64,000 nucleotides of DNA from Schmidtea polychroa (lineage: Eukaryota), in the NCBI GenBank assembly GCA_044892525.1, contig CM097886.1:15624001-15688000 (forward strand), written 5' to 3'. Position numbers and translations under genes: made by a program. This document shows, piece by piece, positions 16,636 to 51,600 of this stretch (positions within the stretch are counted from its first letter, which is position 1; every line of letters begins with the position of its first letter). Under the pieces are notes generated by a model. It was given only the letters and a program-made list of their open reading frames with translations. It ran no database searches and was not told where the DNA came from.

Positions 16636-17488
16636 TGTAATGTATAGTTATTTTTACTAGTATTTTAGTGTTCACAATTAGGGATTGTGAACACTAAAAT
16701 ATAAATTGTCACCATCTGGAAAACCCAGATTTTCAAAAAAAAAACTATATAGCGATAATTCACTAATTCGCTAAAGGAAATTGAAAAATTAAAAAAAAAT
16801 CAATAAGAAAAGATTTATCAAAGATAGAAAAGCTACGATCTAATCAAAGGATTTCCCTGACGGTTTTAAAAAGTTAATTCATCTAGAACCACTAGAAACT
16901 TTTGAAACAGTTACAAGTACCAAAAGTATTTTCATTTCAACTTCTAGAATTGTATCTTCTATAAATACACAAATACCTTCAACTGAATCTCAGCCTAATC
17001 CCTCAAATTCATTACATTGTCAAAGAACAAGTAAATCAGGAAACTCGAATTATTTACTGAATCTCAGCCTAATCCCTCAAATTCATTACATTGTCAAAGA
17101 ACAAGTAAATCAGGAAACTCGAATTATTTACTGAATCTCAGCCTAATCCCTCAAATTCATTACATTGTCAAAGAACAAGTAAATCAGGAAACTCGAATTA
17201 TTTACTGAATCTCAGCCTACTCCCTCAAATTCATTACATTGAGATTATTTCGAGACCTAACTGACCTACCTCCGGACTCAAGGTTCTTAATTTTGTTTTG
17301 AATAAAGTTTTGTTACAATCTATATTATTGTTGATTATTATTTTTATTTTTTATTTGTTACACAGCACACACCCCGATTGTCCCAACACATTTTATCGGT
17401 GACTCTTTCGGGCTCGACAATCTTCTTATTAAACATACAAGAACATACGAAAACATACAACAATTTTCTTATTAAACTTACACTAACA
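16636..17488 (+). mobile_element. Solo LTR
   Basis: TGTAATG...AACA ends; 5-bp TSD CAGTG at 16631-16635 and 17489-17493; homologous to 32364-33153. Confidence 0.9.
16983..17241 (+). repeat. 74-bp tandem repeat, about 3.5 copies, inside the solo LTR
   Basis: Units start at 16983, 17057, 17131 and 17205; the three full units appear identical. Confidence 0.95.
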
Positions 17489-19786
17489 CAGTGCATTGCT
17501 CTTCTTAGTTATAGTATTGCCAGCGTCCGAAAAGTTGCATTTTGACATAGATGAAGAAGCGGGTATGCATAGTACAGACCTAGCTGCTCTGGCCATGATA
17601 GGCAAATTCTTTGCATTCTACCACCATTCTAAAATATCAAAATCCTCACAACTGCGATCGTGCTTTAGTAAGCGAAGTAGAGAGTAAAGCTTTATCTCAG
17701 TTTCAATTTGTTCCAAAAGAATTGGTTCTTTTAGTATTTCTGCTTCAAGTTCTGACTCATCATCTGAAGAACTTCCCGCAAATGAAATAATGTCTTTCTT
17801 GTGAACTGTTCTTTGCCGTTTAACTTGTTGTTGCACTAACTTGTTGTTGCACTATCTTGTTAATCTGCTCATTTTCCGTACTGCCACTTTAACTCTCCCC
17901 AACCTTCTGCATTAAACAAAGTAATTGCGACTGACATTTATTAATTGTGTCGATCGAAACTTCAAACTTTGATTCTAATCTTGCTTTTTGACGGGGATCG
18001 AGATACGCAGCCAAAACATGTAAATCTTCTAGCTTCCACTTAGACTTTATTGTTTCATGTACAAGTTCTGCAATCTTTTGCTTTTGTGGCTTTTTTGGAT
18101 CTTCCATAATTGATTTGCAATGAGCTATAAGTCTGAACCTCTCATAAACAATAAGATGAAAAGTTGGTGTCTTAAACTGCTCTAATACCAAAGTTGAAAC
18201 TTGGTATTCGGATAAAAAAGAAGCTAAATCTTCTAACAAATTCTTATCAATCTTGGCAATCAGCAACTGCTTTCTTCTTGGCTCCAAAATTGCGTAAATT
18301 TCGTGATAGACTTTAATCATACTTACTAGTAGTCTTAGAAGCGAGTTTCACCGAGTGCAGTTTTCTTGTTTGAGTGTCGAAGTCAGATAAATTTGAAGAT
18401 TTGCTTGCTTAAAATATGTCACTAAAGTTTTACAATTGTCAATTAATTCAAATATTTCTGGGGCTAAATAAAAAAATCGATAAAATGGTGATGAGCGATT
18501 TCCATTTACAACTTCATTTGTTTTGTTGAATACGGTTGTCAACTTATGATCAGCACATGGCAGCCAAGAATATTTAGAACGAATTCCACCAATGGCAGCC
18601 ATATTAGAACCACTATCAGAGCATAAAATTGCTAATGAAGAATTATTACAACCATATTTAGCTAGATATTGCTCAAATTCTTTCAACACTTCATTGGCTG
18701 TGTGTGACTCAGCATGGAATACTTTAACCTGAAGAGGTCGAGCGTTCAATAAATATTCAGAATTGATGTAATGAATTGTTATTGACATAAAAGAGCGTTT
18801 TTTAATCGAGTCAGTCCATAGATCGGCTGTAAATCCAGCTGCAATATTATCATCAAAATGCTGCTTACATTTAGCTTTAACAAGTTCTCTAACTTGTGCT
18901 GCCATATCAATAACATTATTCTTGACAGTGTTTGAACTAGGCATTAGATCAACAATGTCCACAGGCCTGATTAGAGTCACCCCAATTTCCAATATCACCT
19001 TACATAGTTGCTGAAATCCGGAATCGCTTAATTAAAAAAATGGTGCTATGTCTTTTGCACACATTACCGCTGCTGCCCTAGCTACTTTTGTTTTGTCTCC
19101 AGATCTTGCGTTGCCTTTTTGTAAATATTGTTGCATTGCGCCGGTCTGACTCGATGCCGATGTTGATCCAGATTTGCAAGATTTCGCATGTTGGTTGATC
19201 GTTGATGTGCCAAGTGATGATTTGTAAGTAAACACAGTTTGACAATAATTGCAGACAACAAAGTTGTTACTATCAAACTCTAGAAGAGCATTCAAATACT
19301 TCTCATACACAAATAAAAACGTCTTCCAACATTTGGAAGCACTTTTCTTCGTATTACAATTCTTCCTTAGTTCTAACACTTTGCAAGAATCATCGCATTT
19401 ATATAATTCAACTTTAATATACTCTTTAGTTGCATTAATAGTTTGAGTCATTTAATATGTTTTAAACTTATTAAATATAGAATTCGTAAATTTAACACGA
19501 CAGAATCTGCTTTCGGCAAGCGGCGTGCACAAAATTTTGAACCAATGAGATTTCAGTGTTCACGTGATTTATGCTTGCGTGTGCACTGTGCACTCGCGCC
19601 ATCTATTTTTATGATATAAAATAGCGTTTCTCAACCTTTTTGGCCTGTGGCCTCCTTTTGAGATTTTCTTTTTGGTGTGGCCCCCACATCTCTAATATTT
19701 GTTCGAAAAAAGTAGATATTAAAAATAAAACTATTTAAAAATTCCAAAACATATTTTAAATAAACGTGTACATATATAAAACATAC

Positions 19787-21309
19787 CAGGCCCGTACCGT
19801 CGGGGGGCCCAGGAGGGCCCGGCCCCCCAAACGCAAGTCTGGCCCCCCCAAATAAAAAAACGGACATGAATAAAAAATTACATTCAATATGTTTGATAAA
19901 AGAAAAATTGCTATCGTGCACACATGCATTGAGTTGCACATGTAGAGGTTTATGTAGTGTGGACGGGGGTAGGATGTTCCATCTATCTGCCTCACTGGAA
20001 GAGACTGGTATGTGAAGTCGGTGGCGTGGGTAGGGTGCGTGCTGTCTGTCTTTCCTGCCTCACAGGCAGTAACAACGCATGGAGGCATGATTGAGTGTCA
20101 GAGCACGGAGTGGGTGCATTGTGGTCTTCATACGATGGTAGAGAGATAGGCCAATGAGAGCACATCACATGTCATTATACTCAACTCACTCCTATGGCAG
20201 AGTGACATGTTAATTGATCATATTTTGTAACATTTTTTTCATCGTATTAGATTCTAATATTATTAGAATAATATTATTAGAATTATATTATTAAATCTTA
20301 TATTTTTTTCACTCTATGTTTAGAAAATTTTTAAAAATGAAAATTTAAGTTTAAAGGTTAAGAGACTTCCTGATAGAAAAAACAAAATATATAAACATGA
20401 TTTAAGAAAATATTGCTTAATTGAAAAATAACTTTGAAAAATATATACTTTTTAGTAAAAAAAAGTAGTATTTGAACGGTGGATATTTTATCATTTTATT
20501 TTGTTTAAATATTATCTATTTTTAAGATCATTCCAAATTCAGTAATTTTATTAATTTTTAATACATTTTCATATATTTCTTCTGTATTTATTTAGTCTAC
20601 AATTAAAATCTTTTTTATTTTCATCTTTTTTATTTTATTATTATTTATTTTATTTTTATGGTTGTATTAAGATAATAAATAATAAGATAATAAATAATAA
20701 GATAATAATAATTAGAACATGTCGACAGAAAAGAGTATCATGAATTTCTTCCAAGTCATTCCAAAGAATTCTGTGACTTCAGTCACTTCATCCAGTGATA
20801 GTATCTCTGCTACTATGTCCTCAACTTGTGCTAGTCCTTCATCTGTACCTGCTATTTCATGTATCCGTGACAGTGCAGTGATGTCCTCATCTACTAAATG
20901 TGATCTGGGTGAAGAAATGCCACGCCAGCCAACTGCTGTAAATTTCCCAAAGACTTCGTTTGGTTCAAGGGAACGCTCATTTTCGTCTGTGTGGTATAAT
21001 GGAAGACCATATTTGGAGTACTCTATTGAGAAAGATGCAGTCTTCTGCTTTTGCTGTAGAAAATTTTCATTGCCCGGCTCTGCTGGCGAAAGTGCTTTCA
21101 TAACAGGAGGATTCCAAAATTGGAAATCGGGTTTAGAAAAAGGAAAAGGTTTTCAAAAGCATGAATCTTCTGTTGGCCACATCCATGCCATGGAATGCTG
21201 GAAAGAGAAACAGCTGAGATGTGAAAAAGGTGAGGAAGTTTGCACTTTGATTAATGAAACACAGCTGAAGAACAACCGTTATTACATATTTTTTCAACAA
21301 ATTATGTAA
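19787..21309 (+). mobile_element. 5' part of a ZMYM1-like hAT element with a TTF-type zinc finger ORF (20719-21309); 3'-truncated
   Basis: Starts CAGGCCCG; ORF has RERSFSSVWYNGRPYLEYSIEKDAVFCFCCRKF..GFQNWK..KHESSVGH. Confidence 0.8.
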
Positions 21310-21331
21310 AAAAATTGATCGTTTTCTTTAT

Positions 21332-24300
21332 TTAGTGTGATCCTTGTGCTTGATGCAATTTAGCCAATTTATTAATTTCGGGCTTCAATGTTGTTAGCGA
21401 CATACGCAGTCGCCTCTTTGCACAACATCAAGACAGTTTCGTGCTTTTGAGAGGAGATGCATAACTCGACTAAATCCAGATTCAACCAAATAAGATGTGG
21501 GAAATGCAATGAAATATAACCTAGCTTCTCCCATAACTGTGGGAATGTACTGGCTATTTCATTGCTGATCCAGAAATTATCTTTATTTAATTTAAATCTA
21601 ACTTGAGCATTCATACCACTTTGCAAGTCCACAAGACTTTCTTGCAGTTCGATATTGATATCAGCTGCATTCACACTAAATGGATCAATTACCCAATCTG
21701 GAATATTTAAATTAATAATATCAATAAATCTAACTCGCATATTCTCACGAAGCTGTTTCAAATGATTAATATATATTTCCAAATCATCATCTTGTATTTC
21801 ATTTAAAATTGTGGCCAATGATGAAAATTGCGCTAACTCACGACGACCAATATTCGTTATGAAAAGATTCAGCTTTCCCAAAAAAGCATTAATTACTTTT
21901 TTACACGTTATGAGATTACAATTTTTTCCTTGTAACTGTTTGTTTAATAAATTAAGTTTTTCAAATATATCTGATAAATAAAATATGTCACATTTTACAC
22001 TAACCAGCTCCACTCCGAATTCTGCATCTTTCATAAAAGATATAATACTATTCCAAAGCATAACAAACCGTTTTAATCTATTACCCTTCGATAACAACCG
22101 AACTTCTGTGTGTAATAGGAGGCGCTCAAAGCCTTCCTCATTTGTCGGAAGAGGCGATCTCGAAGTGGACTTGATTTAATGAAAATTATTGTTTTTATTA
22201 CAATATTATGAGATTCATGTAAACGCCCTCTTAACGTTTTTGCAACCAAATGTTGACGATGAATTACGGAATGTAATAAAGAAATATTTGGCACATCATT
22301 CTTCAGATATGTGATAAATCCTCGATATTTACCAACCATTGAAGCAGCGCCATCGGTTGCGCATGCTAGTATATTTTCAAGCGGGATATTTTTCTCCATA
22401 AAAATTTTTTTAACTTCTTGATATATCTTTTCACCTTTTGTGTCAGTTTTAAGTTTTCTGGCAAAGAGCATTTGTTCAATAAACTTGTCATTATCTTGAA
22501 ATCTAACATACGCCATTAATAGAGCTTCACTATCACGTATAGAGGATTCTTCTAATTGTAGGGCAAACTTCTTAACTTGCAAATGAGCAATTAGTAGTTT
22601 TTCCACATCATCTGCCTTTTCATCGATACGCCTCGATACTGAAGAATTGCTCAAAGGAATGACTTGAGTAATTGCATTTGGGTTCTGATTCATGACCCTT
22701 GAAATAACAATAGACACTGATGGCAAAATCAAAGATTCTGCAATAGTATGTTCTCTTCCAACTTTTGCAATTAACTGCGAAATCTCATAAGAAGCAATTA
22801 ATCCATTGTTAATCATCGATGACTTTTCATTAAATACTTGTAAAATTGTTTTTCTTGATCGAAAACCATCTTGAAGTTTTTTAAAAAATTCAACTGGCTT
22901 GTCTTTTTTGTCTTCATGTGCAGTTTCTAAATGTTTTTGTAATTTGCATGGTCGCATACTTTCGTTTCATAATACAGGCCCGACAAGAGGGGGGGGGGGG
23001 GGTTGAGGGGGGCCCCGGAGAAAAAATCTATTATGATTTAAATCACTTAATTTTTTATGAAAAAACCATGATTTCAATTTGTAGGAACTATGTTCCTCCT
23101 TTTGTAGTGCGTGTGTGTGGGGTACGTCTGGAGAGTGTCCGTTGCCAAGATTGCACAAGGGTACGATAATGGATCCAATATGAGTGGCTCATATAAAGGT
23201 GCTCAAGCTCATATTTTGCAAATCAATCCACTGGCAATATTTTCCCCTTGTGCATGTCATAGTTTACATTTGTATGGTGTTCATGCAGCAGAATCTTGTC
23301 ATGAGGTTGTAACGTTTTTTGGTACGGTACAAAAATTATACAATATTTTTAGCAGTAGCTCTCAAAGATTGGAAATATTAAAAAATAATACTGGACGTTC
23401 ATTGTACTCTATGTCAAATACACGTTGGTCTGCTAGAATTGAATGTATTAAACCAATTGCTGAAAATTTCCTGCAATTAAAAGTGCCATAGATTCTGTTC
23501 TAGAATTAAACTTAACATGGGAAATTCGTTCAGATCTGAACAGAATAAAAAAATATATGGAATTGTTTGAATTCTTAGTAATGGCTAAAATTTGGTACAA
23601 AGTCCTTCAAGCTATAAATTATAGAAATATTGTTTTACAAGCTCGTGATGCGACAATTGATGTAGAAGTAGCGAATTTGTCAAGTCTTCTTGATGAATTA
23701 CAAACAATAAGAGATAGTTGGGAAACTCTCTTCAATGAATGTAAATTGTTTGGTTCATCTTTAGAGATAAATACAGATTTTGAAACAAAACATAGTAAAA
23801 GGAAAAAATGGGGGAACGAATTAGAAATGACACCAAGTGACGAATTCAGAACAAATGTTTTCAATGTTTTCTTAGATTGTATTATTGGAAATATTGCAAG
23901 AAGATTTAATGCGGCTAAAGAAATTGATTCGTTATTCAATGTATTATGGTTATTTCATAACCTTAATGATGAAGAAATACAAAAGAAGTCCGAAAAATTA
24001 CAAAAAGTATATGAAAATGATATTGACCATAATCTTGGTGAAGAAATACTCCATTTAAAATCAATTTATGATGCCAATATACAAAACAAATCTCTCTCGC
24101 CCATTGAGTTACTAAACATCATTAAAAAATGAAACTGGATGTATTGTTTCCCAACATAATAATAGCAATAAGATTATTTTGTACGATCCCTGTAACCGTT
24201 ACTGAAGCAGAACGATCCTTTAGTGTTTAAAAAAGGATAAAAGATGTTTTGAGATCCACAATGTCACAACACCGATTGAATGATTTAGGAATGTTGTCGA

Positions 24301-24744
24301 TTGAATCTGAAATGGCTAAGAAAATTGATTTTCAAGACGTAATTAATTTGTTTGCTAGGCGCAAGGTTCGGAAAGCAACATTCTAAAAAATAATTTGTTT
24401 TTTGTACATTTTTTTGTAATTTTAGTTCTAAACGTTTTCATTTTTGTAAGAGAATTATTGATGAATACATTGTTCCAATAACAATTAGGATATTTTTCGG
24501 TTTCCCGCTTCATTTATAAATAGCCCAAAGTCCGAGGGGGAAATTATTTTTCACGCTCTTGGCAGGGGCCCACACAAGAAGCACAAGAAGTATATCCCCG
24601 GGCCCCAAAAGTCCTCTCGGCGGCTCTGCAGCCATACACAATAAACACATAGGCTTTTTAATATCTACTGTCGATTGAATAAACCCATACACGAGATAAT
24701 CGATGGAATATTGTCGACATTTTTTCTTAGTCTCACTACTAATG
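21332..24744 (-). pseudogene. Charlie/Buster (ZBED5/SCAND3-like) transposase, interrupted at 22975-24628
   Basis: KKCRQYSIDYLVYGF..PMCLLCMA|VL*NESMRPCKLQKHLET, FALQLEESS, ATDGAASMVG, HSVIHRQHL, and C-terminal LAKLHQAQGSH*. Confidence 0.9.
22975..24628 (+). mobile_element. Internally deleted ZMYM1-like hAT element retaining the 3' half of its transposase
   Basis: TIR CAGGCCCGACAAGAGG / CCTCTCGGCGGCTCTG (12/16). Remnant peptides GYDNGSNMSG, CACHSL, TRWSARIE, AERSFSV..LRSTMSQHRLNDLGMLSIE. Confidence 0.85.
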
Positions 24745-26051: not shown

Positions 26052-26451
26052 AGAAAGAAGAAGAAGATAAAATCATACAACTAAACCAGAATGAGACAAA
26101 CATTGGAGTAAGTACCTCGCAATTATTGGAGCCACCAAGGGATAGGGTGAGCCCGAAGTTGGTCGAAAATAGGAGAAAGAAGGAGAGGAGAGGGAGACCG
26201 AGAAAGAGTCAAATGAACCGGCCTCCAAGAGAACTCCTAAGGCCAGTAACTATGCAAAATGTTACTAGACAGGCATTAGCAGGAATAGCTAGCCAAATAG
26301 ATAAAAGCGTTGGAGACGCCAGTAGTAAAACAGAAACATGGAGGAAATTAAATCAGATATTGCGATTGATTAAGATATTGCGATTGAATGGCAAATCAAG
26401 AAAGATAAAGATATAAACGTTGAGAAAATCACTGAAAAGATAAAGAAAACA

Positions 26452-28791
26452 ATGGGAAAGATCCCAGGAAATACCACGGAACAAGAAATGTTCGAAGTGG
26501 CAGAACAATTCCTAAATGAAGGAATGACGAAAGGGAAAATGATAACGATTTTAGCCTTAATGTTTAAAAATGCCTTAATGATACTTAAGGTTGATCAGTC
26601 AGGAATTCAAGCAACCTTAGATAGGTTGACTAATATTATAGAAGTGAATTTCGGAACATGGATGACCGAACACAAGTTTTGGGAGATAAAAGAGACAAAA
26701 GGAAAATATGAGTTAAATGAGGAATTACTAACGGAAAACATTTCGAGTAATCCACGGGGAACAGGTGGATTTACCAGTTGGATGATGATGTTGTTAGTAA
26801 TGATGGGAATATTGAGACAGACAAATTCCTTAACGGCATATGATTGTAGTGAACCAATACTATCACGAATATACTCATTAGTAGACACAGTGGAATGCAA
26901 GGAAGCATATCCCGACAAAGTGGCTAAAAGGGAAGATGTAGAATTTTACGTTTATCAACAAACAGAATTTTACCGAACAAGGATAAGGGAATGTCGAATA
27001 CAGAGAGCGACATTTGAATACTATTGCGGATCAAATAGTTATTCAGTATATTTAGGAGCCAAACTTATTCCTGTACCTTTGATAATCCCACCAGAGGATT
27101 GTGTAAATGCTTTTCGATCAAAGACGGTCAAAATAGATGATGAAGTGACAATTACTGCTGAAGAGGGAAAGAAATTGGGTATAACTATTACCCGGGGAGG
27201 ACCAATAGCAGATGATGGTTCTTGTCAGGGTAGAAAGAAACTACGAGGTTCTAATGTAGTAAGCTATGTGGTAACAGTTGAGGATTACACAGTAGAGCTG
27301 ATCGATTACGAAGGAACTTTTGAAGTTTCTACGGGAAAAATGATGTCGCATTCAGAATGTAATGCGAAGTTTGGCTATTGTAAAACCAGTTTAGCAGTAT
27401 TGACTTATCAATCAATGAGAGATTTTTGTGATTTGGGATACTTGAAAAAGTTAGTATTTTCAAGGCTTGATGGGAAAAGTTTTACGTCTCAAGACACGAA
27501 ACAGAGTGGTTGGGGAGACAAGATGGCTCACAAAACGAAAAAAGAGGAAGTACCAGAGAAAAACACAGCGGTAGTGTTAGTCTCAAAGGATCCAACAGAT
27601 GCAATACGATTAGTCAGAAAGAAACAGACCACAAAGTGTGGAGTATTAACATTTGAAACAAATTATAAAGGAATATATTTAGCACACAAATATGTTCTAG
27701 CAGCTGAATCAGAGTGTGAATTACGGCTGTGCGACCAGAAATTTAGACACGATATCAAAGTCACAAGAAAATGTATGGCTGAATGTATCGTGGGAATGGA
27801 TATATTGAAAAAGTTAAAAGATATTGTCTTCGATTGTGCAACAGGTGAATTAGTAAAAATGAAGGGTAGAAAACGAAAAACCTACAGTGTGGATGTAGTG
27901 TTTCTAGATAGAACGGTAACCATACCACCAAGAACCGAGACAGTTTGTTTTGTAGCCACACACCAAGAGGTGAAGGGAGATGTTATTTTCGAACCTAGTG
28001 AGCAGTTCGTGAATAGATATAAAACGCCCATGGTGCAAAACTTGGCAACAGTACGGGGAGGAAGAATTCCCATTCGATTAACAAATCTAGCAAGCAAGTC
28101 ATTGAAACTGTACCCAGAAACGAGAGTGGGTAAAATAATGCAACTTGCAAATGTACCCAAAGAAAGTGAGACGATAATATCAGTCCAAGAGGATGAACGA
28201 GATCCAGATATTGAATATTATGATGCACCAAGTTGTGATAGTAAAGCATTAACTAGAAAAGAGAACATCAGAGTTAATCAGTTGTTACGTAAATATGACC
28301 AAGTTTTTGCAAAACACGAATATAATTTAGGGCAAGTTAATATCTTAGAGCATGAAATTAAATTAACAGAAAATAAACCGATAAAAATACGCCCGTATAG
28401 AATACCTCAAAGTATACAAAGGTCCGTGGATAAACAAATTAAATTAATGCAAAAATATAATATAATTAGACCAAGTAAATCTCCATATTCCTCACCTTTG
28501 GTGGTTGTAGCTAAAAGAGATGGCTCAGTTAGATTATGTAATGACTATAGGAAATTAAATGAACAGACAGTAAGTGACAATCACCCGCTACCTTTGTTAG
28601 ATTATATATATGATAAAATGAAAAATTCAAAATTGTTTACTGTGATGGATGCCCAGAAAGGGTTTTATCAAATAAAGATCAGCGAAGACTCAATTCCTAT
28701 GACAGGATTTTCTACAAGTAGTGATCATTTCGAATACTTAGTAATGCCGTTTGGATTAAAAGGAGCCCTCCAACTTTTCATAGGGCAATGA
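26452..28791 (+). CDS. Chimeric ORF: leader + signal-like segment + chuvirus-like glycoprotein ectodomain (26836-~27681) fused in frame to a protease C-half and RT N-terminus
   Basis: MMMLLVMMGILRQTNS then LTAYDC, ECRIQR..YYCG, EDC, DGSCQG, EC..GYC, FC, KCG; then IVGMDIL (protease end) and KIRPYRIP..SPYSSPLVVVAKRDGSVRLCNDYRKLN (RT). Confidence 0.85.
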   Translation: MGKIPGNTTEQEMFEVAEQFLNEGMTKGKMITILALMFKNALMILKVDQSGIQATLDRLTNIIEVNFGTWMTEHKFWEIKETKGKYELNEELLTENISSNPRGTGGFTSWMMMLLVMMGILRQTNSLTAYDCSEPILSRIYSLVDTVECKEAYPDKVAKREDVEFYVYQQTEFYRTRIRECRIQRATFEYYCGSNSYSVYLGAKLIPVPLIIPPEDCVNAFRSKTVKIDDEVTITAEEGKKLGITITRGGPIADDGSCQGRKKLRGSNVVSYVVTVEDYTVELIDYEGTFEVSTGKMMSHSECNAKFGYCKTSLAVLTYQSMRDFCDLGYLKKLVFSRLDGKSFTSQDTKQSGWGDKMAHKTKKEEVPEKNTAVVLVSKDPTDAIRLVRKKQTTKCGVLTFETNYKGIYLAHKYVLAAESECELRLCDQKFRHDIKVTRKCMAECIVGMDILKKLKDIVFDCATGELVKMKGRKRKTYSVDVVFLDRTVTIPPRTETVCFVATHQEVKGDVIFEPSEQFVNRYKTPMVQNLATVRGGRIPIRLTNLASKSLKLYPETRVGKIMQLANVPKESETIISVQEDERDPDIEYYDAPSCDSKALTRKENIRVNQLLRKYDQVFAKHEYNLGQVNILEHEIKLTENKPIKIRPYRIPQSIQRSVDKQIKLMQKYNIIRPSKSPYSSPLVVVAKRDGSVRLCNDYRKLNEQTVSDNHPLPLLDYIYDKMKNSKLFTVMDAQKGFYQIKISEDSIPMTGFSTSSDHFEYLVMPFGLKGALQLFIGQ

Positions 28792-31080
28792 ATATCATGT
28801 TGATGGATGCACATCACGCAATGGTATATATAGACGATATTATCATCTTCTCAGAAGATTTGGACAAACATTTAGAGCATCTTGAAGACATTTTCAAACG
28901 ATTAATCATGGCAAACTTAAAAGTTAAACCAAGCAAATGTAAATGGGCAGAATCGGAAGTGATTTACGTGGGGCATGTAATATCACACGATTGCGTAAGA
29001 CCAGATCCGGCTAACACGGATAAAGTAAAGAATTTCCCACAACCAGTGAATGTGAAACAAATCAAAGGATTTTTAGGGTTGACGGGATACTATCGGAAAT
29101 TTATACTAAATTTTTCAGCAATTGCTTTTCCTCTAACTACCTTAGAAAAGAAAGGTATAAAATTTTTATGGGGAGAAGACCAGCAACAGGCATTTGATAA
29201 GTTAAAAGATGCACTATGCAAACCACCAATTCTACGATTTCCAGATTTTAAAAGACAATTCATGGTGATGACCGATGCATGCACAAGAGGAATAGGTGCA
29301 GTTTTGGGACAGAAAGACGAAATTGGCGATGAATACGCAGTAGCATATGCAAGTCGTGGATTAAAACCACACGAGAAAAGTTATGCTGTAATAGAATTGG
29401 AAGCATTAGCATTAGTATTTGCAGTGGAAAAATTTAGTCATTACCTATGGGGCAGAAAGGTAATTTTCTATACGGATCATAGACCACTACAATGGTTATT
29501 GAAACACAGAGAATAAGCGTCAAAATTAGTAAGATGGGCATTGAAATTGCAGCCCTATAATATTGAAATAGTATACCGAAAAGGTAAAGCCAATGGTAAC
29601 GCTGATGCATTATCAAGAATGGAACAGGAACCGGAAGCGGAAGATATAAAAGAAGGAAGATTAAAAGGAACTATATTTATGTTGAAAAGGGAAGCAAACA
29701 CCTTGATCGACTTGGTAGAGGCACAGAAAAGTGATGACGAAATTAATATGATCAGACAAGCTATAGAAGCCAAAGCCATACCAAGCGAGTTTCAGAAATA
29801 TTGGGAGAAACATAAAGATAAATTCATATTAGAAGAAGGTTTGATCAAATATGTAGAGGCAAAAGATAACGTTATATTAGTGCCAAAGAAATATAGAGAA
29901 CCCTTATTGTTACAATACCATGATGGAGCACTGGGAGGGCATCTCTCAGCAAGACATACATTGTCTAGATTAAAAATGAAGTATTTTTGGCCAGATATGA
30001 AAGATGATGTCAAGAAATGGTGCCAAACATGCAAGATATGTGTAACCAGGAGGAACACAGGCAGGAAACCTCATGTTCCGTTAAAACCAATGCCAGTACC
30101 GTCCTCGCCGATGGAGATGACAGCTATGGACCTACTAGGACCATTTAAAGAATCAAATATGGGAAATAAATTCATAATTGTGTTCTGTGACTACTTAACC
30201 AAGTGGCAAGAAGCATTTCCAATACCGAATCATAAGGCAGATACAATCGCCAGAATTTTTGTCGAGCAAATTGTATTCAGATATGGTGTTCCAACAAAAT
30301 TACTAACTGACAGAGGAAAAGATTTCATGAGTAATTTATTAAAAAGTGTCAATGATTATTTCGGCATATTAAAACTGAACACTTCACCATATCACCCACA
30401 AACCGATGGTTTAGTGGAAAGGTTCAATGGAACCTTGGCTAACATGTTATCATCATATGTGAACTCAGGGCAGACGGATTGGGATGTACATATACCGTCC
30501 TGTTTGTTCGCATACAGAAATGCAGTTCACTCAGTCACAGGAGAAACACCATTTTACCTGATGTATTTAAGGCATAGCAAGATGCCAGTAGATCTTATAT
30601 TTTATCCTAAAGCTTCACAAAATTGTGATGAAGGAAATTACCTATTTGAGATGAGAAGAAGCCTGGGAGAAGGCAGGTTTAAACATTCGTTACAAGCAAG
30701 AGACAATGAAGGAGTATCATGATCGTAAAGCGAAAGATCATGGGTTCTTAGTAGGTAACTATGTAATGCTAGAAGGACATTACAACAAAAAGGGATTGTC
30801 TCAGAAGTTGATGAGAAATTATAAAGGCCCATATCAAATAATGAAGGTCACGGAAACAAACTTGATTTTACAGTTAGTGTCAAACAAGAAAGCGGAACCC
30901 ATTATGGTTCACGCAAACAGATGTAAAAAGATAGCTCCACCAGAAAAGGAGAAGCCAAAATCAGAAATAGACGAATTTGAAATTAATAAGAAATTGAAAA
31001 AGAAAACGTTGGAATCATACAAAAGTATCCTAAAGGGACAACCAGAGAGGTATCCTTTACGATACCGACAGATTCCGAAA
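27690..31080 (+). pseudogene. pol: Gypsy/Ty3 pol (half PR, RT, RNase H, integrase, GPY/F) with two frameshifts and one stop
   Basis: RT YIDD; RNase H TDA..GIGAVL..ELEALA..DH; integrase HHCC (HDGALGGH..CQTC), MDLLGP, TDRG, VERFN; NYKGPY. Order RT-RH-IN is Gypsy. Frameshifts near 28770 and 30680; TAA at 29514-29516. Confidence 0.95.
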
Positions 31081-32058
31081 ACTGTAACATTTTTGTCAAT
31101 AATCAGTTGTGTTATGATGATAGGACAAGCATTTGAATTGTTTGATCCAGAAGCTAGTCATCACCCGGATATAGAATACCGGAGAACGGATAGATCATTC
31201 AGATTTTATTTGACAAATCCGCAATGGCACAGATATGATTTATATCTGACAACTCCAGAAAGAGAAGTATCTTTCCATCTAAATCTATGGGATCGAGTGA
31301 AGATAATAGATGGATTATTACCAAATACCAGTTATCTCCTAGAAATTAAGACATATATGGCAGATCCAAACGTGTTCGCAAATGGAGGAGATTGCGATGA
31401 CAAAGCAGCATGGATCGTGAGAACAGCGGTATTTAAGGAAAAAGTGGAAATTACGTATCAGAACCAGACAGTTAAATTCCATCATTTATATTGGAGGAAA
31501 AGTAACACATTTTCTGAACATGATTGGAGAATAAATAATCGAATAGCGCTCCTATACATATTAGAAAATAATAAAACAGTAAAGAAGTTAGTACTCAACC
31601 AAGCTTATCAACGGAGGAGCTGGACAGTTAAACAAAATATCGAAACGATAGCCAGTATAACGTATATGGAATTCACAGAGGAAACAGGCTGGTATACGGT
31701 GTATCATGAGATGATAAAATTAACACCTCCAGCAATAAAGGAACTAGCTAACCGACGATGGGAGGCTAGATTAGTAAATATCCCGGGTTTTAGAGGAATA
31801 AATACAATGGATTGGACGAATTTTCAAAGGGTAGCGAGTGAAAAACGTTCACGTGAAAATAAAATAATTAAAAATTGTTCATGTCAGACTGAACTTAAGG
31901 GAAATTCAGGAGCTAAAATGCCAAATTGGCTAATCATAACTATTGTAGGGGGAGTAATAATTATGATATTGAGTTTAATAATAGCTACCTTGTGGATGTT
32001 TAAAATAATAATGAGGGACATAAGGTATTGGGAAAATACTTACGAGACCGAGATTTAG
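30706..32058 (+). CDS. Pol C-terminal extension: internal signal peptide, FN3-like ectodomain, single TM helix, short tail
   Basis: Same frame as the integrase GPY/F domain. Hydrophobic TVTFLSIISCVMMIGQA (31081-31131); IIDGLLPNTSYLLEI FN3 signature; TM WLIITIVGGVIIMILSLIIATLWMF. Confidence 0.8.
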   Translation: MKEYHDRKAKDHGFLVGNYVMLEGHYNKKGLSQKLMRNYKGPYQIMKVTETNLILQLVSNKKAEPIMVHANRCKKIAPPEKEKPKSEIDEFEINKKLKKKTLESYKSILKGQPERYPLRYRQIPKTVTFLSIISCVMMIGQAFELFDPEASHHPDIEYRRTDRSFRFYLTNPQWHRYDLYLTTPEREVSFHLNLWDRVKIIDGLLPNTSYLLEIKTYMADPNVFANGGDCDDKAAWIVRTAVFKEKVEITYQNQTVKFHHLYWRKSNTFSEHDWRINNRIALLYILENNKTVKKLVLNQAYQRRSWTVKQNIETIASITYMEFTEETGWYTVYHEMIKLTPPAIKELANRRWEARLVNIPGFRGINTMDWTNFQRVASEKRSRENKIIKNCSCQTELKGNSGAKMPNWLIITIVGGVIIMILSLIIATLWMFKIIMRDIRYWENTYETEI

Positions 32059-32259: not shown

Positions 32260-35190
32260 ATGGATCAGAACAGAATGACAAAAGCCCCAATCAAAGCAAA
32301 CAGACGACTTCAAATGGCAAAATACAATTCCCAATGTCCAACAGATATGGAGGTATACAGTACTGTAATGTACTGTTATATTTGTATGTATTTTAGTGTT
32401 CACAATTAGGAATTGTGATTACTAAAATATAAACGGTCACCATCTGGGAAATCCAGATTTTCAAAAAAAAAACTATATCGCTATAGAAAATTGAAAATAC
32501 AAAAAAACAAAAATCAATAAAAGTTAAAAAATTAAATTACCATAGAAAGAAAGAAGCTACTAGAAACAAAACTAGAAAATTAAAAGTCCATTAAAAATTT
32601 ATTAAACCAAAGAAAGAAAGAAAGAAGATATAATAAAATATTTATTGAAAATAGCAAAGATATTACATTATCAAAGTATTCCCAAATAAACCAGAGTATC
32701 CACCAGCAATAAAAGTTAAACGAGGTTTTAAACATTTACATTGGCAAAGAACGAATAAACTAGAAAATCTGAATTATTTACATCGAGTTTTCCTCGGGAT
32801 TATCAAAATTATTATCTCAATAAAACATTATAACTGAACCGGGAAGTTTCATCTTATCCTATTGTTATTACCAAATTGTCCTCATTTTTTCGGTGAATTT
32901 ATCGAGTCCTATAATTATCCGAAACAAATACTTAATTCCATTATAATACCTTCAAAAACTATTTCAGAGCCTAATTAACCTACCTCCGGACTCAAGGTTT
33001 TTCTATTTTGTTTAGATAAAAGTTTGAGTATAATATATTATTGTTTATTATTATTTTATTTTATTTGTTGTTACTCAGCACACACCCCGATTGTCTTAAC
33101 ACATTTTTTTATCGGTGACTCTTTCGGGCTCATCAAATTTCTTAGCCATTACATACCAATTGCATATCACACACAAAAAAAAACAAATATAGTAACCATA
33201 ATACTATAATAAGTATCTTCAAGGAAGAATACGTAAACCGGTTCATAGGAACCACGGTAGAAACGAAGATGAATCATTTCACTTCGAATTATTGGTATTA
33301 TCCCAGGAGAGTGGATATCCCAAACGATTATAAATTCCCAGGTGGATCTCACAGACAAATGATGATAACGGTTGTAAGCAACCAAGGGAGAATAAAGTTA
33401 GGACATTTATGAAGAGAATATGGATCATGTCCAAGGAGAGAGAACATTTGGATCCACGCTATAAATAGGCCAATCACGGTGTTCATGGCAGGTATGGACC
33501 TACCCGTGGAATTGGATAAATATAGTACGTTGGAAATATACCATTCAGATGGACGAGAAAAGAACATTCAAGTTCAAGCAACAGCAATAAATGCAATAAT
33601 AGCGGTGGAAATATTGGAGTTTAGGAAACAACACCCTATTGTGAGTCGAAATGAGCCGACATGGATTTATAATGTCAACGAAGCCGACATACAACAGTGC
33701 AAGTCGTTCGTAAGAAAATACTTAACAAAAATCGAGGAGGATGAGGCCACAGTTTTTGTATCAGCAGGATTTGCAAAATCCAGGATGGAGTTGAAAGAAA
33801 CACTAATCCAAATTGCGATAGTGGATATGAGAGGCAACAATTTATTGAGTGCGGTAGTGACTCCCAAGGACCCAGTTAAACACTACCAGACGCACCAATA
33901 TAAACTGAAGGAACCAGAAATCAGAGGGAATTTGGATGAAGACGATTGTCACCACCTTATTAGGAAAATTTGTGACAAGAAAATTATAGTTGGAATTTTA
34001 ATGAAAGATTTAGTTTCGGTAGCCAATCTACCAGTGCAACGATTGTTAGGAATCAGAGACTTATCAGCAAATAAGTTGTTAGAATCCAGAGGAGTCCCCA
34101 AGATTCATGGTCATTATAAATTGGGATTCCTAACAAAGACGTTTTTGCGTACGGTTCCCGGAGAACCAAGGAATTTAGTTGTAACAAACGAGGTACTTGC
34201 GATCCGAGCGGTTTACCTACAAATCCGAAATGAATGGGTAGACCATATCAGTATGCCTCAGGAGGATTACATGTCAGCAACCCAGGCGGAAGCGGTTGAC
34301 TTAGAAATATTGCAGAAACGAAGACTACCCGAACAACCTTCTACATCAGAACAACCCCAGGCAAAGAAAAGGGGTAGGTCACCAGCAGATTTACCACCAC
34401 CTCCAACAGTGTCGATAGGAGAAGAAGAGTATGAAACATGCGTAAGTGAAGCTGAATTAACAAGTCCGCTCAAACCATCTACTAGTGTCGCAAAGAAATC
34501 ACAGAAAAAGTCAGAAGTTAAAAGTGCAAAGGAAACCCCAGAGGTAGGCACAGTCAAAAAGATATTAAAAAAAATGATACCTGGCAAACGAGATAAATCG
34601 AAATTGAAATTGAAAAGGTTGCCAAGCAACCAGGGGAGAAGATAGAAATACCATCCAGCAAGGATGAAGTAAACAAAGCAGAGCCCAGGAAATTATTTAC
34701 GGAACCCGATGATGACTTAATGGAAATTGAATTCCAACCTCCAATCAAGGAATTGCAAGAGAAAATTAAAATCAAATCAGAACCCGAAGTACGAAAGAAA
34801 ATGTTAAAGCTAACAAAAGAAAATGTCATAAAGAAGCCAGTATCAGTAGACGTAGATGGATTTGATCCTATGTGATATAAACGTCCTGACAGGAATTGGA
34901 AGCCTAGAGCCAAAGAATATAATGGCCAACCCATCACGAGGATGGCGATAAATAACAATCAACAATATGATGAGTATGACGTAGATGGAATACCTTATGT
35001 GATATATACAGTCATACTAACATGCGCCCTGGAGGATAAAGCCCTGGCCGTGAGTTTGAGCCAGAGGTATTGAAGAAACGGAAAGCGAAAATGATTCGCC
35101 AATATGCAATCGCAAATAGTTACAATACCACGGAGGTACATCTATACAAAGTTCCCGAACCAGATCCCGACGATCTGGATGTCTGACCGA
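32260..35190 (+). pseudogene. Accessory ORF of the Gypsy element: N-terminal unknown region, DEDD/REX4-like exonuclease fold (33749-34237), charged low-complexity tail
   Basis: Removing the solo LTR plus a duplicated TAC restores one frame from 32260 to 34645 with a single TGA (33410). IQIAIVDMRGNNLLSAVVTPKDPVKHYQT, KIIVGILMKDL, IRDLS, LAIRAVYLQIRNEW parallel REX4/ISG20. Frameshifted continuation to about 35190. Confidence 0.75.
32364..33153 (+). mobile_element. Solo LTR inserted into the accessory ORF
   Basis: TGTAATG...CATTACA inverted termini; both ends are homologous to 16636-17488. Confidence 0.9.
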
Positions 35191-35394
35191 AGGAAATTGC
35201 CAGAAGCCGTTCAATTAAGTGTAAATATGAACTTATCTATATGTGTTTTATGTGACATTTCTTGGACATTACTTTGTGATTCTGTCATTTATCATTTTGG
35301 GAATATGGGTTTATATTTTGTTTTATGATTTATGGTAATTTTGCAGTTCTTGAAAAAATAATTTTATATCTTGTTTTCGGGACGAAAATCTTTT

Positions 35395-35406
35395 AGGGGG
35401 TAAGAC
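35395..35406 (+). promoter_or_regulatory. Polypurine tract
   Basis: TTTT-AGGGGG-TAAGAC immediately before TGTTAGGG. Confidence 0.75.
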
Positions 35407-35407
35407 T

Positions 35408-36463
35408 TGTTAGGGATAGGCCCCTGGCCTTAAATTATTAATCAATTAGAAAGTACAAAGTACTTAAGATTTGGAAAAACAAAATAGAAAATGAAATCGA
35501 TCCACTAGAAAATGAAAACAGCTTAAATAGACATAGCACTTAAACATTGATCCGCTAGAGAATGGAAGCAGTTTGGTTGGACGTGGCACTTAAACATTGA
35601 TCCGCTAGAAAATAAAAACAGCTTAATTAGACATAGCACGTAAACAGAAAGAAAAGTCAAGATCAAAATGCAGCTGTGCTCAATAGACTATAAATGGAAA
35701 GCAACATTGTTGGAAAGGTGTAGTGAAATTGGCAGAGCAGAAGACACTAGAATATTTTAGAAAAGAAAAGGGACGATAAACATTGAGAAGAATTTGGACG
35801 AGAAAACTGACAAGAAAGTTGGACGGAAAAACATTGAGACAATAATTTAGAAAATTATTTGATTATCATTGAAGTTCAACAATAAGTCGAAATCAGAGAA
35901 AACGTGATTAAAGAATCACTGTGTTTGTCAAGTACCAGACGACATTTCCAGCTCAAATTTCCGATTAATTAATACGAAGAAATTTGTCTATAAATTGTGA
36001 ACGAGAATCGATTTGGAGTTACAAAAAATAAAAAAAAACAATTAATAGCCAGAGGCAAGAATATCGTGATCAAGAATTTTTGAAGAAGATTATTCTACAA
36101 TAGTGTTTATTCAAACAAGGTAAAATTATTTTGTAAAGGGATAAATTAGTATCCTGTGGAATAGTTAAAATAAAGCGAACGCAAAGTATTGTTCTATTAC
36201 TTTAGTGTTCCCTGGGAGCCTCAAAATCATTCCCTCTTGCTTGCCCAACTCTTTTAGTCATTTTGCGATCGTTGTGCTACACAGGAGCCATCGATTTCTT
36301 GCAGGCTGTGGTAAACAGTAAGGATTAATAAATCCGTTTTCTTGTATTCTCTGCACATTAATTGTAAAGCAACTTTTGTAAATTATTGAATACATTTTTG
36401 TAAAAAGAGAAAGAGTTTGTTTTGTTTTTAATTCAGTGATTTAAACTTACACGCGCAACCACA
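35408..36463 (+). mobile_element. 3' LTR of the Gypsy element; 3' end approximate
   Basis: TGT start after the PPT; 50-bp repeat x3 at 35500/35550/35600; TATAAA at about 35689; candidate CA ends near 36450-36463. Confidence 0.7.
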
Positions 36464-36530
36464 TTAAATATAATCTATTTATATTTATTTTTATTTATTT
36501 TTTTTAATTAAATAATTGGAGTCATTTGTG

Positions 36531-37280
36531 TTAAGATCTGTAGTCNNNNNNNNNNNNNNNNNNNNNNNNNNNNNNNNNNNNNNNNNNNNNNNNNNNNNNN
36601 NNNNNNNNNNNNNNNNNNNNNNNNNNNNNNNNNNNNNNNNNNNNNNNNNNNNNNNNNNNNNNNNNNNNNNNNNNNNNNNNNNNNNNNNNNNNNNNNNNNN
36701 NNNNNNNNNNNNNNNNNNNNNNNNNNNNNNNNNNNAGACACTGAACATGGTATCTATGCTGACAAGGCAACTCGTACACTTCATCGGCCACCTCATAATC
36801 TGACAGACAAATGGAACCTGTATCATTAGGTTTGGTGATTTTCTTGACTTGTAATTTCTCAATATCTGCCTCATTTGCTGGTTGAGGACCACTCTGTTCA
36901 AATTGATTCATAATTCTCGTTACAAAATTGTCGAAACTTTGATCTGAAAATATGTAATCTGACGAATCTGATCTAAAATCAAGAGCTAGCAATTCACCAA
37001 ATAAATATGATATTAGTTGGCCAAAAACACTATTTCTGTTATCAGGATCTCTTGGAGTAATAAAAAAGGAACCATCAGTTTCATTTGTAGTACTTCCACC
37101 GGGAATATGACTAATAATATAATAAACATTCAAGGCATCATCATCACTTTCTATTGAGTTAACAGATTCAATTTTTTCAATAAATCCGTCATTGCACGTC
37201 ACACATTTACCATCCTGAGATATGTGAACGTCCCTGTTGCATTTATGATAATAGTAATTACCTATATTAATCGTAGCCAT
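36531..37280 (-). CDS. RNF115/RNF126-like RING-H2 E3 ligase, possibly degenerate; RING partly in an N block
   Basis: N-terminal C..C..GFIEKI zinc ribbon; FDNFVTRIMNQFEQSGPQPA and LPCQHRYHVQC match the RNF126 family. Confidence 0.85.
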   Translation of the reverse strand: MATINIGNYYYHKCNRDVHISQDGKCVTCNDGFIEKIESVNSIESDDDALNVYYIISHIPGGSTTNETDGSFFITPRDPDNRNSVFGQLISYLFGELLALDFRSDSSDYIFSDQSFDNFVTRIMNQFEQSGPQPANEADIEKLQVKKITKPNDTGSICLSDYEVADEVYELPCQHRYHVQCXXXXXXXXXXXXXXXXXXXXXXXXXXXXXXXXXXXXXXXXXXXXXXXXXXXXXXXXXXXXXXXXDYRS

Positions 37281-48603: not shown

Positions 48604-51600
48604 TCATACATTATTCCTATAATCTAAGCGTTGGTCTAGATTTTCCATTGGTATTGCTCCAGAAATAGTTGGATTATTTTGATTTATCCAGTCTCCAGAT
48701 CTATGGGTTGAGTATCGAGAAGGTTGTGGTTCTGCATATCTTATCTTGGAGAAAGTCCCCAAACTATTTCCAAAAGAACCGAGAGAATTAGTATTGATAA
48801 AAGCTTTATGAGATGGCATATTAATAATATTATTGCTAATATTATTATTATTATTAAAAACTGAAGTATTGCACGCTTGATTGTTTGTTATTGCAGAATA
48901 TCCACTGGAAGAATTCAAACTGGTATTTGAGTTTTGATACTTAATCTGATATTCCAAATTAGACCTTCTCTTGTTTTCCTGAATGAAAAAAATTCAAACC
49001 AATGTTAAAAAACTTTTTCATTTACTTTAGAATCGTCATAGAAGTTCTTGGAACATTGGTTTCGATCTATCCCTAAATCGCAGTTCATTTTCGGATACAC
49101 CAGCTCATTGCTATTGTACTCTTGACCATATGAAAGAGGAATATTTTCATCTAATTTCATCGATGTCTCAGACGAAAGTCCATATTTACTAGGATGACCG
49201 CTTGTTCCATAAGAGGAAATTGATTGTTTATTTTCATCATAAGATAAATTGAAATCTTGGGTATCCGAATGGGTTATATGGTCTATGTTGAATATATTTA
49301 AAACAAAAAATCAGTATAATGTTACCATTCGGATGTTTAAGGGGCATTTGAGCAACATCTGGCAACCCTAGATTGTTTGTGTTATATCTTTTAAATTTTG
49401 CCCGAGACGATCCCAAACTCATATTTGTATTCCAGCTGTTCGAAGTCTTGGGGGATTCAGTATGAGATGAAGGACAACTTAAATAAAGATTTTAAAATTA
49501 TTACTCGTTTCTAACAATTTACTTTGAATCTTTGTAGATCAACTGATTTTTAATGCAAACATACTTTCGTCTCAACAAGTACAAAACGATGGACACGATA
49601 ATGACTATAATGGCACCAATAGGTACTGTTGATGCCAAGATGATCTGTAATTCTGTAAGTTTTCTAGGAAACAATGAGGGTTTTATTCCAGGAATCGACA
49701 TCGTCAGTTCGACGTACGCATATGATGTTTTCAGTCCGGAACTAAAATTCGAAACGAGTGAGTTAAAAATAATCCTTTGTAAATATTTTTAAAGATGTCA
49801 ATTCAAAAACATTTTTAATTAAAGGTTTTTAAAGGTTCCTAAAAATTACTATTTTATATTTGGATTGTACTCTTTTTAGCAAATGTTAACATCGTCAGAG
49901 CCGTTCTAACTCAATAAGGTTACCCAGTGATTTATGTTTTCCTAACTCTGAGTCAAGCAGAACGTAATTATTCAAATATAGAAAGAGAAGCCTTAGTGGT
50001 TGTATGGTCTGTAACCAGATTGAGTCATTTCCTTTTAGGAAGAAAATTCCTAATTCAGACCGAACATTGTCCGTTGAAATATTTATTTGGAAGTGACAGG
50101 GCCATCCTAGAACAAGTCTCAGCACGGGTAACAAAATGGGCAATACAACTGATAAAATACGACTATGATATAACATATATTCCCGGAGCACAGATCCCAC
50201 ACGCCATGGAATCCCCGCCATACTTTCCCAGTTCAAACCATCTTGAAGGGTATAAAATGTTGGAAAGTAAGTCAATACCATACTGAATTTGACGGGTTTC
50301 TTCAAAAGATGCCATTCTATCATTGGAGATCTGCTGATTCTCAAGATGAGTTCCCATCAGAAATGATTTTTGGGAGACTAATACGCAGACCGATAATACC
50401 TGCATTCCAACAAGGCAAAGTTGTCGACACCTTTTGTCAGACCTCTCTAATGCAAAAGGGCTGGAATACATCATGGGTCATCTCAGAAGATGACTACAAT
50501 CTGATCATGAAATTGGCGAGTGATAACCAGCTATCTCCAAAGGGGCTAAGTCAGACACTGGAGAAGAAAATTACGTTATCACTAGATGAAGCGCCAGGCA
50601 TGAACAGTGATCAGACAGAATAAGTTATACCAATTGCCTCTGAAAACGAGCTTCGAAAGATCAAGAAATTGTAAGATAGTAAGTAAGATAGAGGATATTA
50701 CTGACCAAAATATTTAGCCTGAAGAAATTGGTAACCAACATTGCAAGCAACAAAATAGAGCATACACTATACATATCGAGTTGAGGAAGTTGCGTTATAT
50801 TGCATCTTTGTTATATAAGATTATCAAATGAGATTGTAAAAAATAAAACGTGTTAAAATTGAAAAAGAAATACCTTGCGGAAATTCGAAATTGAAAAGAT
50901 TTTTGATAACTTTTTGGAATTTCTTCATTAGTTGCAGACCGTTTCAATCGCTGGCTGTACTCCTTTTCAATGGTAAATTCGTTCTTAATATAAATTGCTC
51001 CTGTCTCATTGTTAATGCCGAAATTCTTTGACGGATTTTCGACAATCTGATAAGAAACCAATCCAAATCGACCGCGATCTTTATCTGTGGCATAGATAGT
51101 GAACAAAATCTGACCAAGTTTCGGTATTCCTCCATCGACATTATGACTGTAGGACTGATGGACAAATTCCGGGAAATACTCATCAATATCCAACACTGAT
51201 ATCTCCACCATGATTGTATGACTGCAACTCCTCAAATAAAAGTAAGAGCCTTTTATCAATAGCTGTAAACGATAATTTTCTTGAGTTTCAAAATCTAAAA
51301 AGGATTTCGATTTGATACTACAGCCAGAATTTGGAGATTGAGAACAAGCCAATTCAAAGTTATCATTGGGGGCTAAAAAATATCTTAAAAATATAAATTC
51401 ATAAATAAATATCCACAAATACATATATATATTTATTTACTGTATATCGTGATACCAATTAGGAAGCTTCAATGCAGTCGTCTTTGGTGGTTCGTTTTCA
51501 TTTATCACCCCGGTTAAACGCTTTATTTCGACACACTTTTTCAAACTTCCTATAATTTGCTTTGGAACTTCAATATTGAAAAATATGTAGCCATTTTCAT

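Follow-up and report, generated by a model that had tools for sequence, protein, structure and literature searches.

A predicted FN3-like membrane protein with a PDZ-binding end motif is encoded behind integrase in Burro-type Gypsy elements of Schmidtea polychroa

The window, a 64,000-nucleotide stretch of Schmidtea polychroa DNA (assembly GCA_044892525.1, contig CM097886.1, positions 15,624,001–15,688,000, forward strand), contains a Burro-type Gypsy element, with Gag-Env-Pol order, whose copy here is damaged. The recognizable parts of this copy, in window positions, are as follows.

26059–26778 (+), 5′-truncated start, comprising a spacer and a Bcl-2-like domain; an 8-base insertion at 26377–26384 shifts the frame
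26779–26835 (+), internal signal-peptide-like stretch of Env; hydrophobic, before AYDC, present in all families compared, presumably cleaved
26836–27710 (+), N-terminal part of Env, a Monjiviricetes-type (gB-like, class III) fusion glycoprotein (PF24664, E 1.8e-19)
27711–30722 (+), damaged pol: end of the protease, dUTPase-like region, RT, RNase H, integrase H2C2 and core (Pfam RVT_1, RT_RNaseH, Integrase_H2C2, rve)
30655–31080 (+), integrase C-terminal part and basic linker; GPY motif at 30820–30834, weak SH3_Tf2-1 match (E 0.32), linker ending in YPLR at 31051–31062
31081–31131 (+), internal signal-peptide-like stretch of a second membrane protein; Kyte-Doolittle hydropathy 2.09 over 15 aa, 88% identity between subfamilies
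31162–31431 (+), predicted FN3-like domain 1; GLLPNTSY at 31312–31335, one N-glycan sequon, seven strands, pLDDT 56–80 by block
31444–31737 (+), predicted FN3-like domain 2; two N-glycan sequons, seven strands, second domain in alignments to FN3 tandems
31738–31926 (+), stalk; pLDDT <50, the fastest-evolving part, 47% identity between subfamilies
31927–32001 (+), TM helix; Kyte-Doolittle 3.01
32002–32058 (+), cytoplasmic tail of ~18 aa, ending Y-E-T-E-I-stop, a class I PDZ-binding motif by sequence
32364–33211 (no strand assigned), secondary 848-bp insertion, solo-LTR-like; absent from the natural copy, with a 5-bp near-duplication at its flanks, splitting the accessory ORF
33212–35390 (+), damaged accessory ORF region, with the accessory frame at 33413–34645
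35391–36545 (+), PPT and 3′ LTR; LTR from ~35408, its end under masked N from 36546; PPT and LTR start the same as in natural copies

The copy in the window is dead. It lacks Gag, its 97% DNA identity with an uninterrupted natural copy beginning at 26059; a deletion of ~1.68 kb (junction 27708–27710) has taken away the remainder of Env with its TM helix, as well as the protease start; and pol carries a 1-base deletion near 28769, a stop at 29514–29516, and an 11-base deletion near 30656. Only the PPT and the 3′ LTR are retained of the hallmarks of an LTR element. A relative of the 848-bp insertion lies at window 16636–17428. Nested, decayed DNA transposon frames on both strands, which we take to be hAT-type, occupy 17889–24400 upstream of the element; an intron-less RING ligase frame, presumably RNF126/RNF115-like, partly masked and possibly a retrocopy, lies beside the 3′ LTR at 36531–37280 (−); and a host exon that is cadherin-like by eye lies at 50795–51436 (−).

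Searching the genome itself with the 325-residue segment encoded at 31081–32058 (123 of 319 candidates scored) gave 126 matches, with two main identity classes of ~97% and ~62%. Natural copies read from both classes are elements of ~15.3 kb. Uninterrupted copies contain a single ORF of 3513 or 3516 codons encoding, in order, Gag, a ubiquitin-like domain, a Bcl-2-like domain, the fusion glycoprotein, Pol, a signal-like stretch, an ectodomain, a TM helix, and a short tail. In a natural copy, Pfam identifies, in order, CCHC knuckles, weak ubiquitin (E 0.011, below the curated cut-off and in the expected place), Monjiviricetes fusion glycoprotein, aspartic protease, RT, RNase H, and integrase; a Bcl-2 match (PF00452, E 0.0016, under the curated cut-off) precedes Env, and three of four family members have it. 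Two natural copies of subfamily B have identical LTRs of 1077–1082 bp, a TGG-type PBS, and a PPT, and one of them has matching flanks, as expected of a target-site duplication. The LTRs, PBS, PPT, and Pol order PR-RT-RH-IN are those of Ty3/Gypsy (Metaviridae), and the gB-type Env in frame between Gag and protease, preceded by BCL2-like and (weak) ubiquitin-like domains, is that of a Burro-type, GAG-ENV-POL element. A conserved spacer without a Pfam match lies between PR and RT; its label here, dUTPase-like, is taken from the accessible part of PMC6431247. Burro-1 (GYPSM1) itself was considered and rejected as the identity of the element, which has 15.3 kb and 3513–3516 aa versus >30 kb and a ~4870-aa ORF with ankyrin, MATH, and BIR domains; Pfam gave no match to MATH, BIR, or ankyrin in the element. 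Its integrase core is 56% identical to that of a BIR-bearing Burro-1-type family.

An initial annotation of the window had described integrase as continuing into an FN3-containing membrane protein "instead of a recognisable fusogen". The fusogen is in fact present upstream of Pol, detected in the window and, between the CCHC knuckles and the protease, in the uninterrupted copy (PF24664, E 1.8e-19 and 5.8e-56, respectively); because the element has this class III-type Env between Gag and Pol, the segment replaces no fusogen. The Burro-type identity of the element was overlooked in that annotation, as were the second FN3-like domain and the conserved PDZ-binding end described below.

The stop-free frame at 31081–32058 (+) is the 3′ end of a 467-codon ORF (30655–32058) that starts within the integrase C-terminal part. 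It encodes a signal-like stretch, an ectodomain and stalk that total ~265 residues and carry four N-glycan sequons, and, after a TM helix, a short tail with YETEI at its end. The signal-like stretch, TM helix, and tail had been placed here initially, and hydropathy and sequence bear them out; the signal peptide was judged from hydropathy and by eye, with cleavage probably following G-Q-A. The module is predicted to be a type I membrane protein, and the hydropathy fits this topology. The reading frame passes from integrase into the tail in uninterrupted copies, as claimed, but in the window copy it enters from the GPY/F part only, the 11-base deletion near 30656 having put the integrase core out of frame with the tail. 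The tail is also free of stops despite the damage to pol, but this is in itself no evidence, being at chance level: given three lesions over the 3370 nt of pol, 0.87 would be expected in the tail, with P(0) = 0.42. The evidence for selection comes from other copies, not from the clean frame of the window copy.

Right before the signal stretch is an (R)YPLRS motif that is kept across all non-Burro-1 families, and a similar motif is present at the ORF start of family D. We take the motif to be reminiscent of the chromatin/nucleosome-binding motif of foamy-virus Gag; it may tether integrase to chromatin. The accessory ORF of the element has 775 codons in subfamily B and ~761 codons in family K, with 40% identity between sister families; it has neither a Pfam match nor a PDB sequence match and by eye presumably resembles a DEDD exonuclease.

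The ectodomain is predicted to consist of two tandem FN3 domains. Three lines of evidence (ESM Atlas, a profile search, and a structure model) agree on FN3, none of them decisive alone. In the ESM Atlas, the neighbours of the tail are FNDC5 and FNDC9 at 0.90, with cytokine receptors extending the range to 0.86–0.90. A nine-sequence profile compared with 1.84 billion proteins yielded seven matches, of which P0010 is the only true homologue; five are FN3-repeat proteins and the last is a low-complexity repeat, and scores of this kind are raised by repeats. The AlphaFold model, calculated from nine sequences, has a mean pLDDT of 62.7 (mostly 70–86 in the domains and <50 in the stalk) and contains two seven-stranded domains. 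The top ten rows of a Foldseek search with this model are all FN3 tandems (E ~1e-6, with low whole-model TM-scores of 0.2–0.4). In structural alignments, domain 1 superimposes on single FN3 domains with Z 8.1–8.6 and an rmsd of 2.6–2.9 Å over 78–84 residues, and both domains together align with FN3 tandems over 162–167 residues with Z up to 9.0, domain 2 being seen within the tandem only. The second beta-rich segment, also reported initially, is present and in the model is FN3-like as well, because both seven-stranded domains match FN3 tandems best. Across families that share 14–27% identity, the residues of the FN3 core are conserved.

The FN3 assignment made in the initial annotation thus holds in the structure model but not in Pfam, where fn3 (PF00041) has no match in the window tail, in four homologous tails, or in the Burro-1 tail, and no other family matches the tail above cut-off. 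Word-index protein searches, which count as weak evidence, returned nothing for the tail among longer proteins, for its alignment, or for the Burro-1 tail; a PDB sequence search gave one uninformative match for the tail profile and none for the three-domain families described below; and a viral fold library matched only generic FN3 proteins. No donor can be named, because fibronectin, tenascin, Tie2, CD148, and others match the structure equally well, at 4–20% identity. The host receptor paralogue for which the initial annotation had suggested a search did not emerge either: the own-genome search gave no donor gene, with no distant host gene among the matches listed (47–100% identity; 123 of 319 candidates scored). 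The module, which the initial annotation had taken for captured receptor-like cargo and which may have come from a host receptor, is old and common to the whole Burro-type clade in this genome.

ORF1 ends in a predicted type I membrane module with S/T-x-V/I/L in all seven Burro-type groups examined, Burro-1 included; the seven are all Env-bearing groups reached by the searches, with subfamilies A and B counted apart. The end motifs by group are ETEV (twice), MSQL, ETRL, ETWV, ETFV, and ATLV, and 23 of 23 full-length copies examined end in T-x-V/I. As background, S/T-x-V/I/L makes up 2.2–2.4% of tripeptides and terminates 9 of 214 other ORFs. By the sequence definition of such motifs (S/T-x-hydrophobic at the C-terminus; PMC4810129, in its accessible part), the tail end is a class I PDZ-binding motif. 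The groups are related in the tree, and the recurrence of the motif is therefore a matter of long retention, not of independent origins.

The ectodomain varies among these groups. The tail of a family with a 3368-aa ORF is homologous (26% identity, E 1e-9), has two domains, and ends MSQL, and three groups have an ectodomain one domain longer, ending ETRL, ETWV, and ETFV. A profile of the three-domain groups and P0010 scores the 3368-aa family at 19.5–21.5 bits versus 8.7 for the best decoy; the same profile does not pick up the window tail, and the reverse search is marginal. P0010, a foreign homologue, is ~32% identical to one Burro-type group and ends TQV. The Burro-1-type family has a 4791-aa ORF and a BIR accessory gene, and behind its integrase and an ankyrin-like region has a signal-like stretch followed by three repeats with cysteines, then a TM helix and a tail that terminates in ATLV. 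Only one of these repeats gives a confident fold, a generic Ig-like sandwich (Z 8.5–8.7) for which FN3 is not singled out; profile comparison detected no sequence homology between this ectodomain and the FN3 families, and the ESM Atlas gave no usable match for the Burro-1 tail. In a small control of possibly damaged copies, four distant Gypsy integrase matches end 7–86 aa past the core, without a TM helix. Among the accessory ORFs, the 533-aa frame of Burro-1 terminates in ATWI, likewise a class I PDZ-like motif, whereas a different one has a signal-like stretch at its start and a weak C2H2 match.

To assess selection on the tail, we compared a natural copy of one subfamily with a natural copy of the other. 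For the tail, dN/dS is 0.23 (95% bootstrap 0.16–0.31) at a dS of 1.08, with no stop; for the same pair, Env has 0.045, RT 0.024, and the integrase core 0.015. In this comparison with pol, of a kind suggested initially, the tail is under purifying selection between subfamilies. By part, dN/dS is 0.07 in the signal stretch, 0.10 (0.04–0.24) in domain 1, 0.23 in domain 2, 0.58 in the stalk, and 0.10 in the cytoplasmic tail, the intervals being wide for the signal stretch and the cytoplasmic tail. Identity between subfamilies is 62% in the tail and 58–76% in the FN3 domains, versus 93% in Env and 91–97% in integrase. Conserved domains, a fast stalk, and faster change than in Env and Pol would fit an outward-facing protein. 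The dS between subfamilies is itself uneven, 0.11–0.27 in Gag, RT, and RH versus 0.7–1.6 in Env, integrase, and tail, probably a sign of recombination between subfamilies.

Within subfamily B (nine copies), the tail has a pN/pS of 0.25 for private changes and 0.07 for shared changes. Within subfamily A (seven copies), private tail changes look neutral (26 non-synonymous versus 3 synonymous), and the integrase region of the same copies gives 0.45 with 5 stops; the numbers are small, and we read these changes as decay after insertion. The pN/pS counts omit copies frameshifted upstream and one near-duplicate. A tail match lies within 1.6 kb behind 56 of the 58 integrase matches listed, in two subfamilies, a count that leaves out a tandem array on C3; the segment belongs to the element and is present across the family. 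That annotation had named three observations that would speak against it (no FN3 or TM prediction, absence from the family, neutral evolution), and none of them was made. The array, at C3 ~106.49–107.23 Mb, has a period of ~2.88 kb and at least 53 copies of a decayed tail piece (tail residues 113–325, 47–50% identity, with stops), and is an element fragment turned satellite. Elsewhere on C3 (~10.086–10.099 Mb), beside one natural copy, several compact ORFs, one of them 1474 aa long, form a series that is Polinton/Maverick-like by appearance.

We propose, with a probability of about 0.5, that the module is an attachment or cell-contact glycoprotein working beside the element's own fusion protein. 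The proposal starts from the observed position, linkage, selection, and end motif, and draws on the predicted fold and topology; from these we infer the following steps. Four hydrophobic stretches (Env signal, Env TM, tail signal, and tail TM) would thread the polyprotein through the ER membrane, and the four crossings would therefore leave Gag and Pol cytosolic and both ectodomains lumenal. Signal peptidase would release the FN3 protein in an amount equal to Env. The PDZ-binding end would tie the FN3 protein to Dlg/Scribble/MAGI-type scaffolds at cell junctions, like the end of HTLV-1 Env; the FN3 domains would recognize a ligand on the surface or in the matrix, and in this way the producer cell or the budding particle would come into contact with a neighbour; and the class III Env would then fuse at the neighbour cell. 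A prediction of the complex of Env with the FN3 tandem, in which alignments were not used, scored 0.00 and bears on neither side.

The same architecture and selection data would also fit a surface protein that modulates the expressing cell, as a receptor decoy or blocker (superinfection exclusion) or as a scaffold competitor, and that is not needed for entry. Host-modulating modules, Bcl-2-like and ubiquitin-like, are present in the element as well; subfamilies differ far more in the tail (62% identity) than in integrase (91–97%), as family-specific exclusion predicts; and many viral PDZ motifs displace scaffolds (PMC4810129, accessible part). However, synthesis in equal amounts with Gag and Env from one ORF suits a structural part, and the own-genome search gave no mimicked host receptor among the matches listed. 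We regard host modulation as rather unlikely. That the module serves the gB-like Env, as its trigger, chaperone, or accessory subunit, seems unlikelier still. Herpesvirus gD or gH/gL serve gB in this manner, and the module is present in seven of seven Env-bearing groups, in the same ORF and, by its predicted topology, on the same side of the membrane as Env; but Env is 93% identical between subfamilies and the FN3 domains only 58–76%, and two to three domains across families, with a dissimilar ectodomain in Burro-1, would be loose for a tight partner.

The module might instead be a sorting or anchoring device, in which the signal stretch tethers Pol and integrase to the membrane, the TM-PDZ end marks the budding site, and the ectodomain is a replaceable spacer. 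Such a device would account for the signal stretch and cytoplasmic tail being among the most conserved parts (dN/dS 0.07 and 0.10, with wide intervals), and for position and end motif being kept even where the ectodomain differs, in Burro-1. Domain 1 is equally constrained (0.10), however, and FN3 core residues are kept at 14–27% identity; we consider this reading improbable. Least credible is a neutral passenger, that is, host DNA captured by chance or adjacent sequence: the neutral-looking private changes in subfamily A and the chance-level absence of stops in the window copy would suit it, but an open frame kept over a dS of 1.08 at a dN/dS of 0.23, location inside the LTRs, linkage in 56 of 58 cases, and homologues in sister families all speak against it, and selection and linkage largely refute it.

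If the module is an attachment glycoprotein, Burro-type elements could be two-glycoprotein endogenous viruses of planarians, with a class III fusogen before Pol, an FN3/Ig-like attachment protein behind it, and PDZ docking on junction scaffolds that builds sites of cell-to-cell transfer, a wider picture that we offer tentatively and consider rather doubtful as a whole. To our knowledge, a single envelope gene is what has been described in enveloped retroelements. Attachment and fusion divided between two proteins, if real, would be an arrangement of which we found no record in any LTR retroelement. An additional surface protein that is under selection and present throughout the clade, in very abundant elements of a main regeneration model, would point to a route of entry or spread more complex than assumed. 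The movement of Burro elements between cells becomes directly testable, with a defined antigen and a putative ligand-binding domain and scaffold-binding peptide, and the end of the Burro polyprotein, blank in accessible papers, is now annotated.

The backbone of the element has been published. Burro/GYPSM1 giant Gypsy elements were described in Schmidtea mediterranea (PMC6431247, Arkhipova and Yushenova 2019, citing Grohme 2018 and Jurka 2007). According to the accessible part of that paper, Burro shares with the present element one ORF with Gag, three CCHC knuckles, ubiquitin-like and BCL2-like domains, an Env related to mononegavirus glycoproteins and placed between Gag and Pol, PR, RT, RH, and IN, together with an accessory ORF; Burro-1 has >30 kb and 4873 aa, in contrast to ~15.3 kb and 3513–3516 aa here. 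The Burro domains given there include no FN3, TM, or PDZ module behind integrase, whereas the Burro-1-type element in this genome has the signal-ectodomain-TM-ATLV end. Burro RNA is raised by smedwi-2 RNAi (PMC8532177, accessible part). GAG-ENV-POL errantiviruses with HSV/gB-type Env have been reported in Platyhelminthes (Smed_errantivirus_1–6; PMC13524379, accessible part) and share the Gag-Env-Pol order and the Env type. By eye, the Env of family D is almost letter for letter that of Smed_errantivirus_2 in PMC13524379, a likeness that points to S. mediterranea or a close relative as the most likely host, and the window Env is closest to that of Smed_errantivirus_4; two Env motifs of the window's family do not occur in the accessible supplements. 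That study examined the C-terminal part of Pol for chromodomains, and "fibronectin" and "accessory" have no occurrence in the accessible main text. Our literature searches found no published description of the membrane module behind integrase, which thus appears undescribed, though its TM helix may have been marked earlier in Grohme 2018 or Repbase.

HTLV-1 Env is likewise a type I viral membrane protein with an S/T-x-hydrophobic end, a C-terminal class I PDZ-binding motif that binds DLG1 and has been proposed to place Env at cell contacts (PMC4810129, accessible part); there the motif is on the fusogen itself, whereas here a putative motif is on a separate FN3 protein. Cellular FN3 type I proteins (FNDC5, FNDC9, cytokine receptors, neogenin, LAR, Tie2) share the arrangement of signal, FN3, TM, and short tail, but with only 4–20% identity and tied matches, so that neither orthology nor a donor can be named. 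Nematode LTR elements of the Cer and Tas types have Env fused behind Pol and share with the present element one ORF with an internal signal peptide after integrase; in those elements the downstream protein is the fusogen, whereas in the present one an FN3-like protein takes that place and the fusogen lies upstream.
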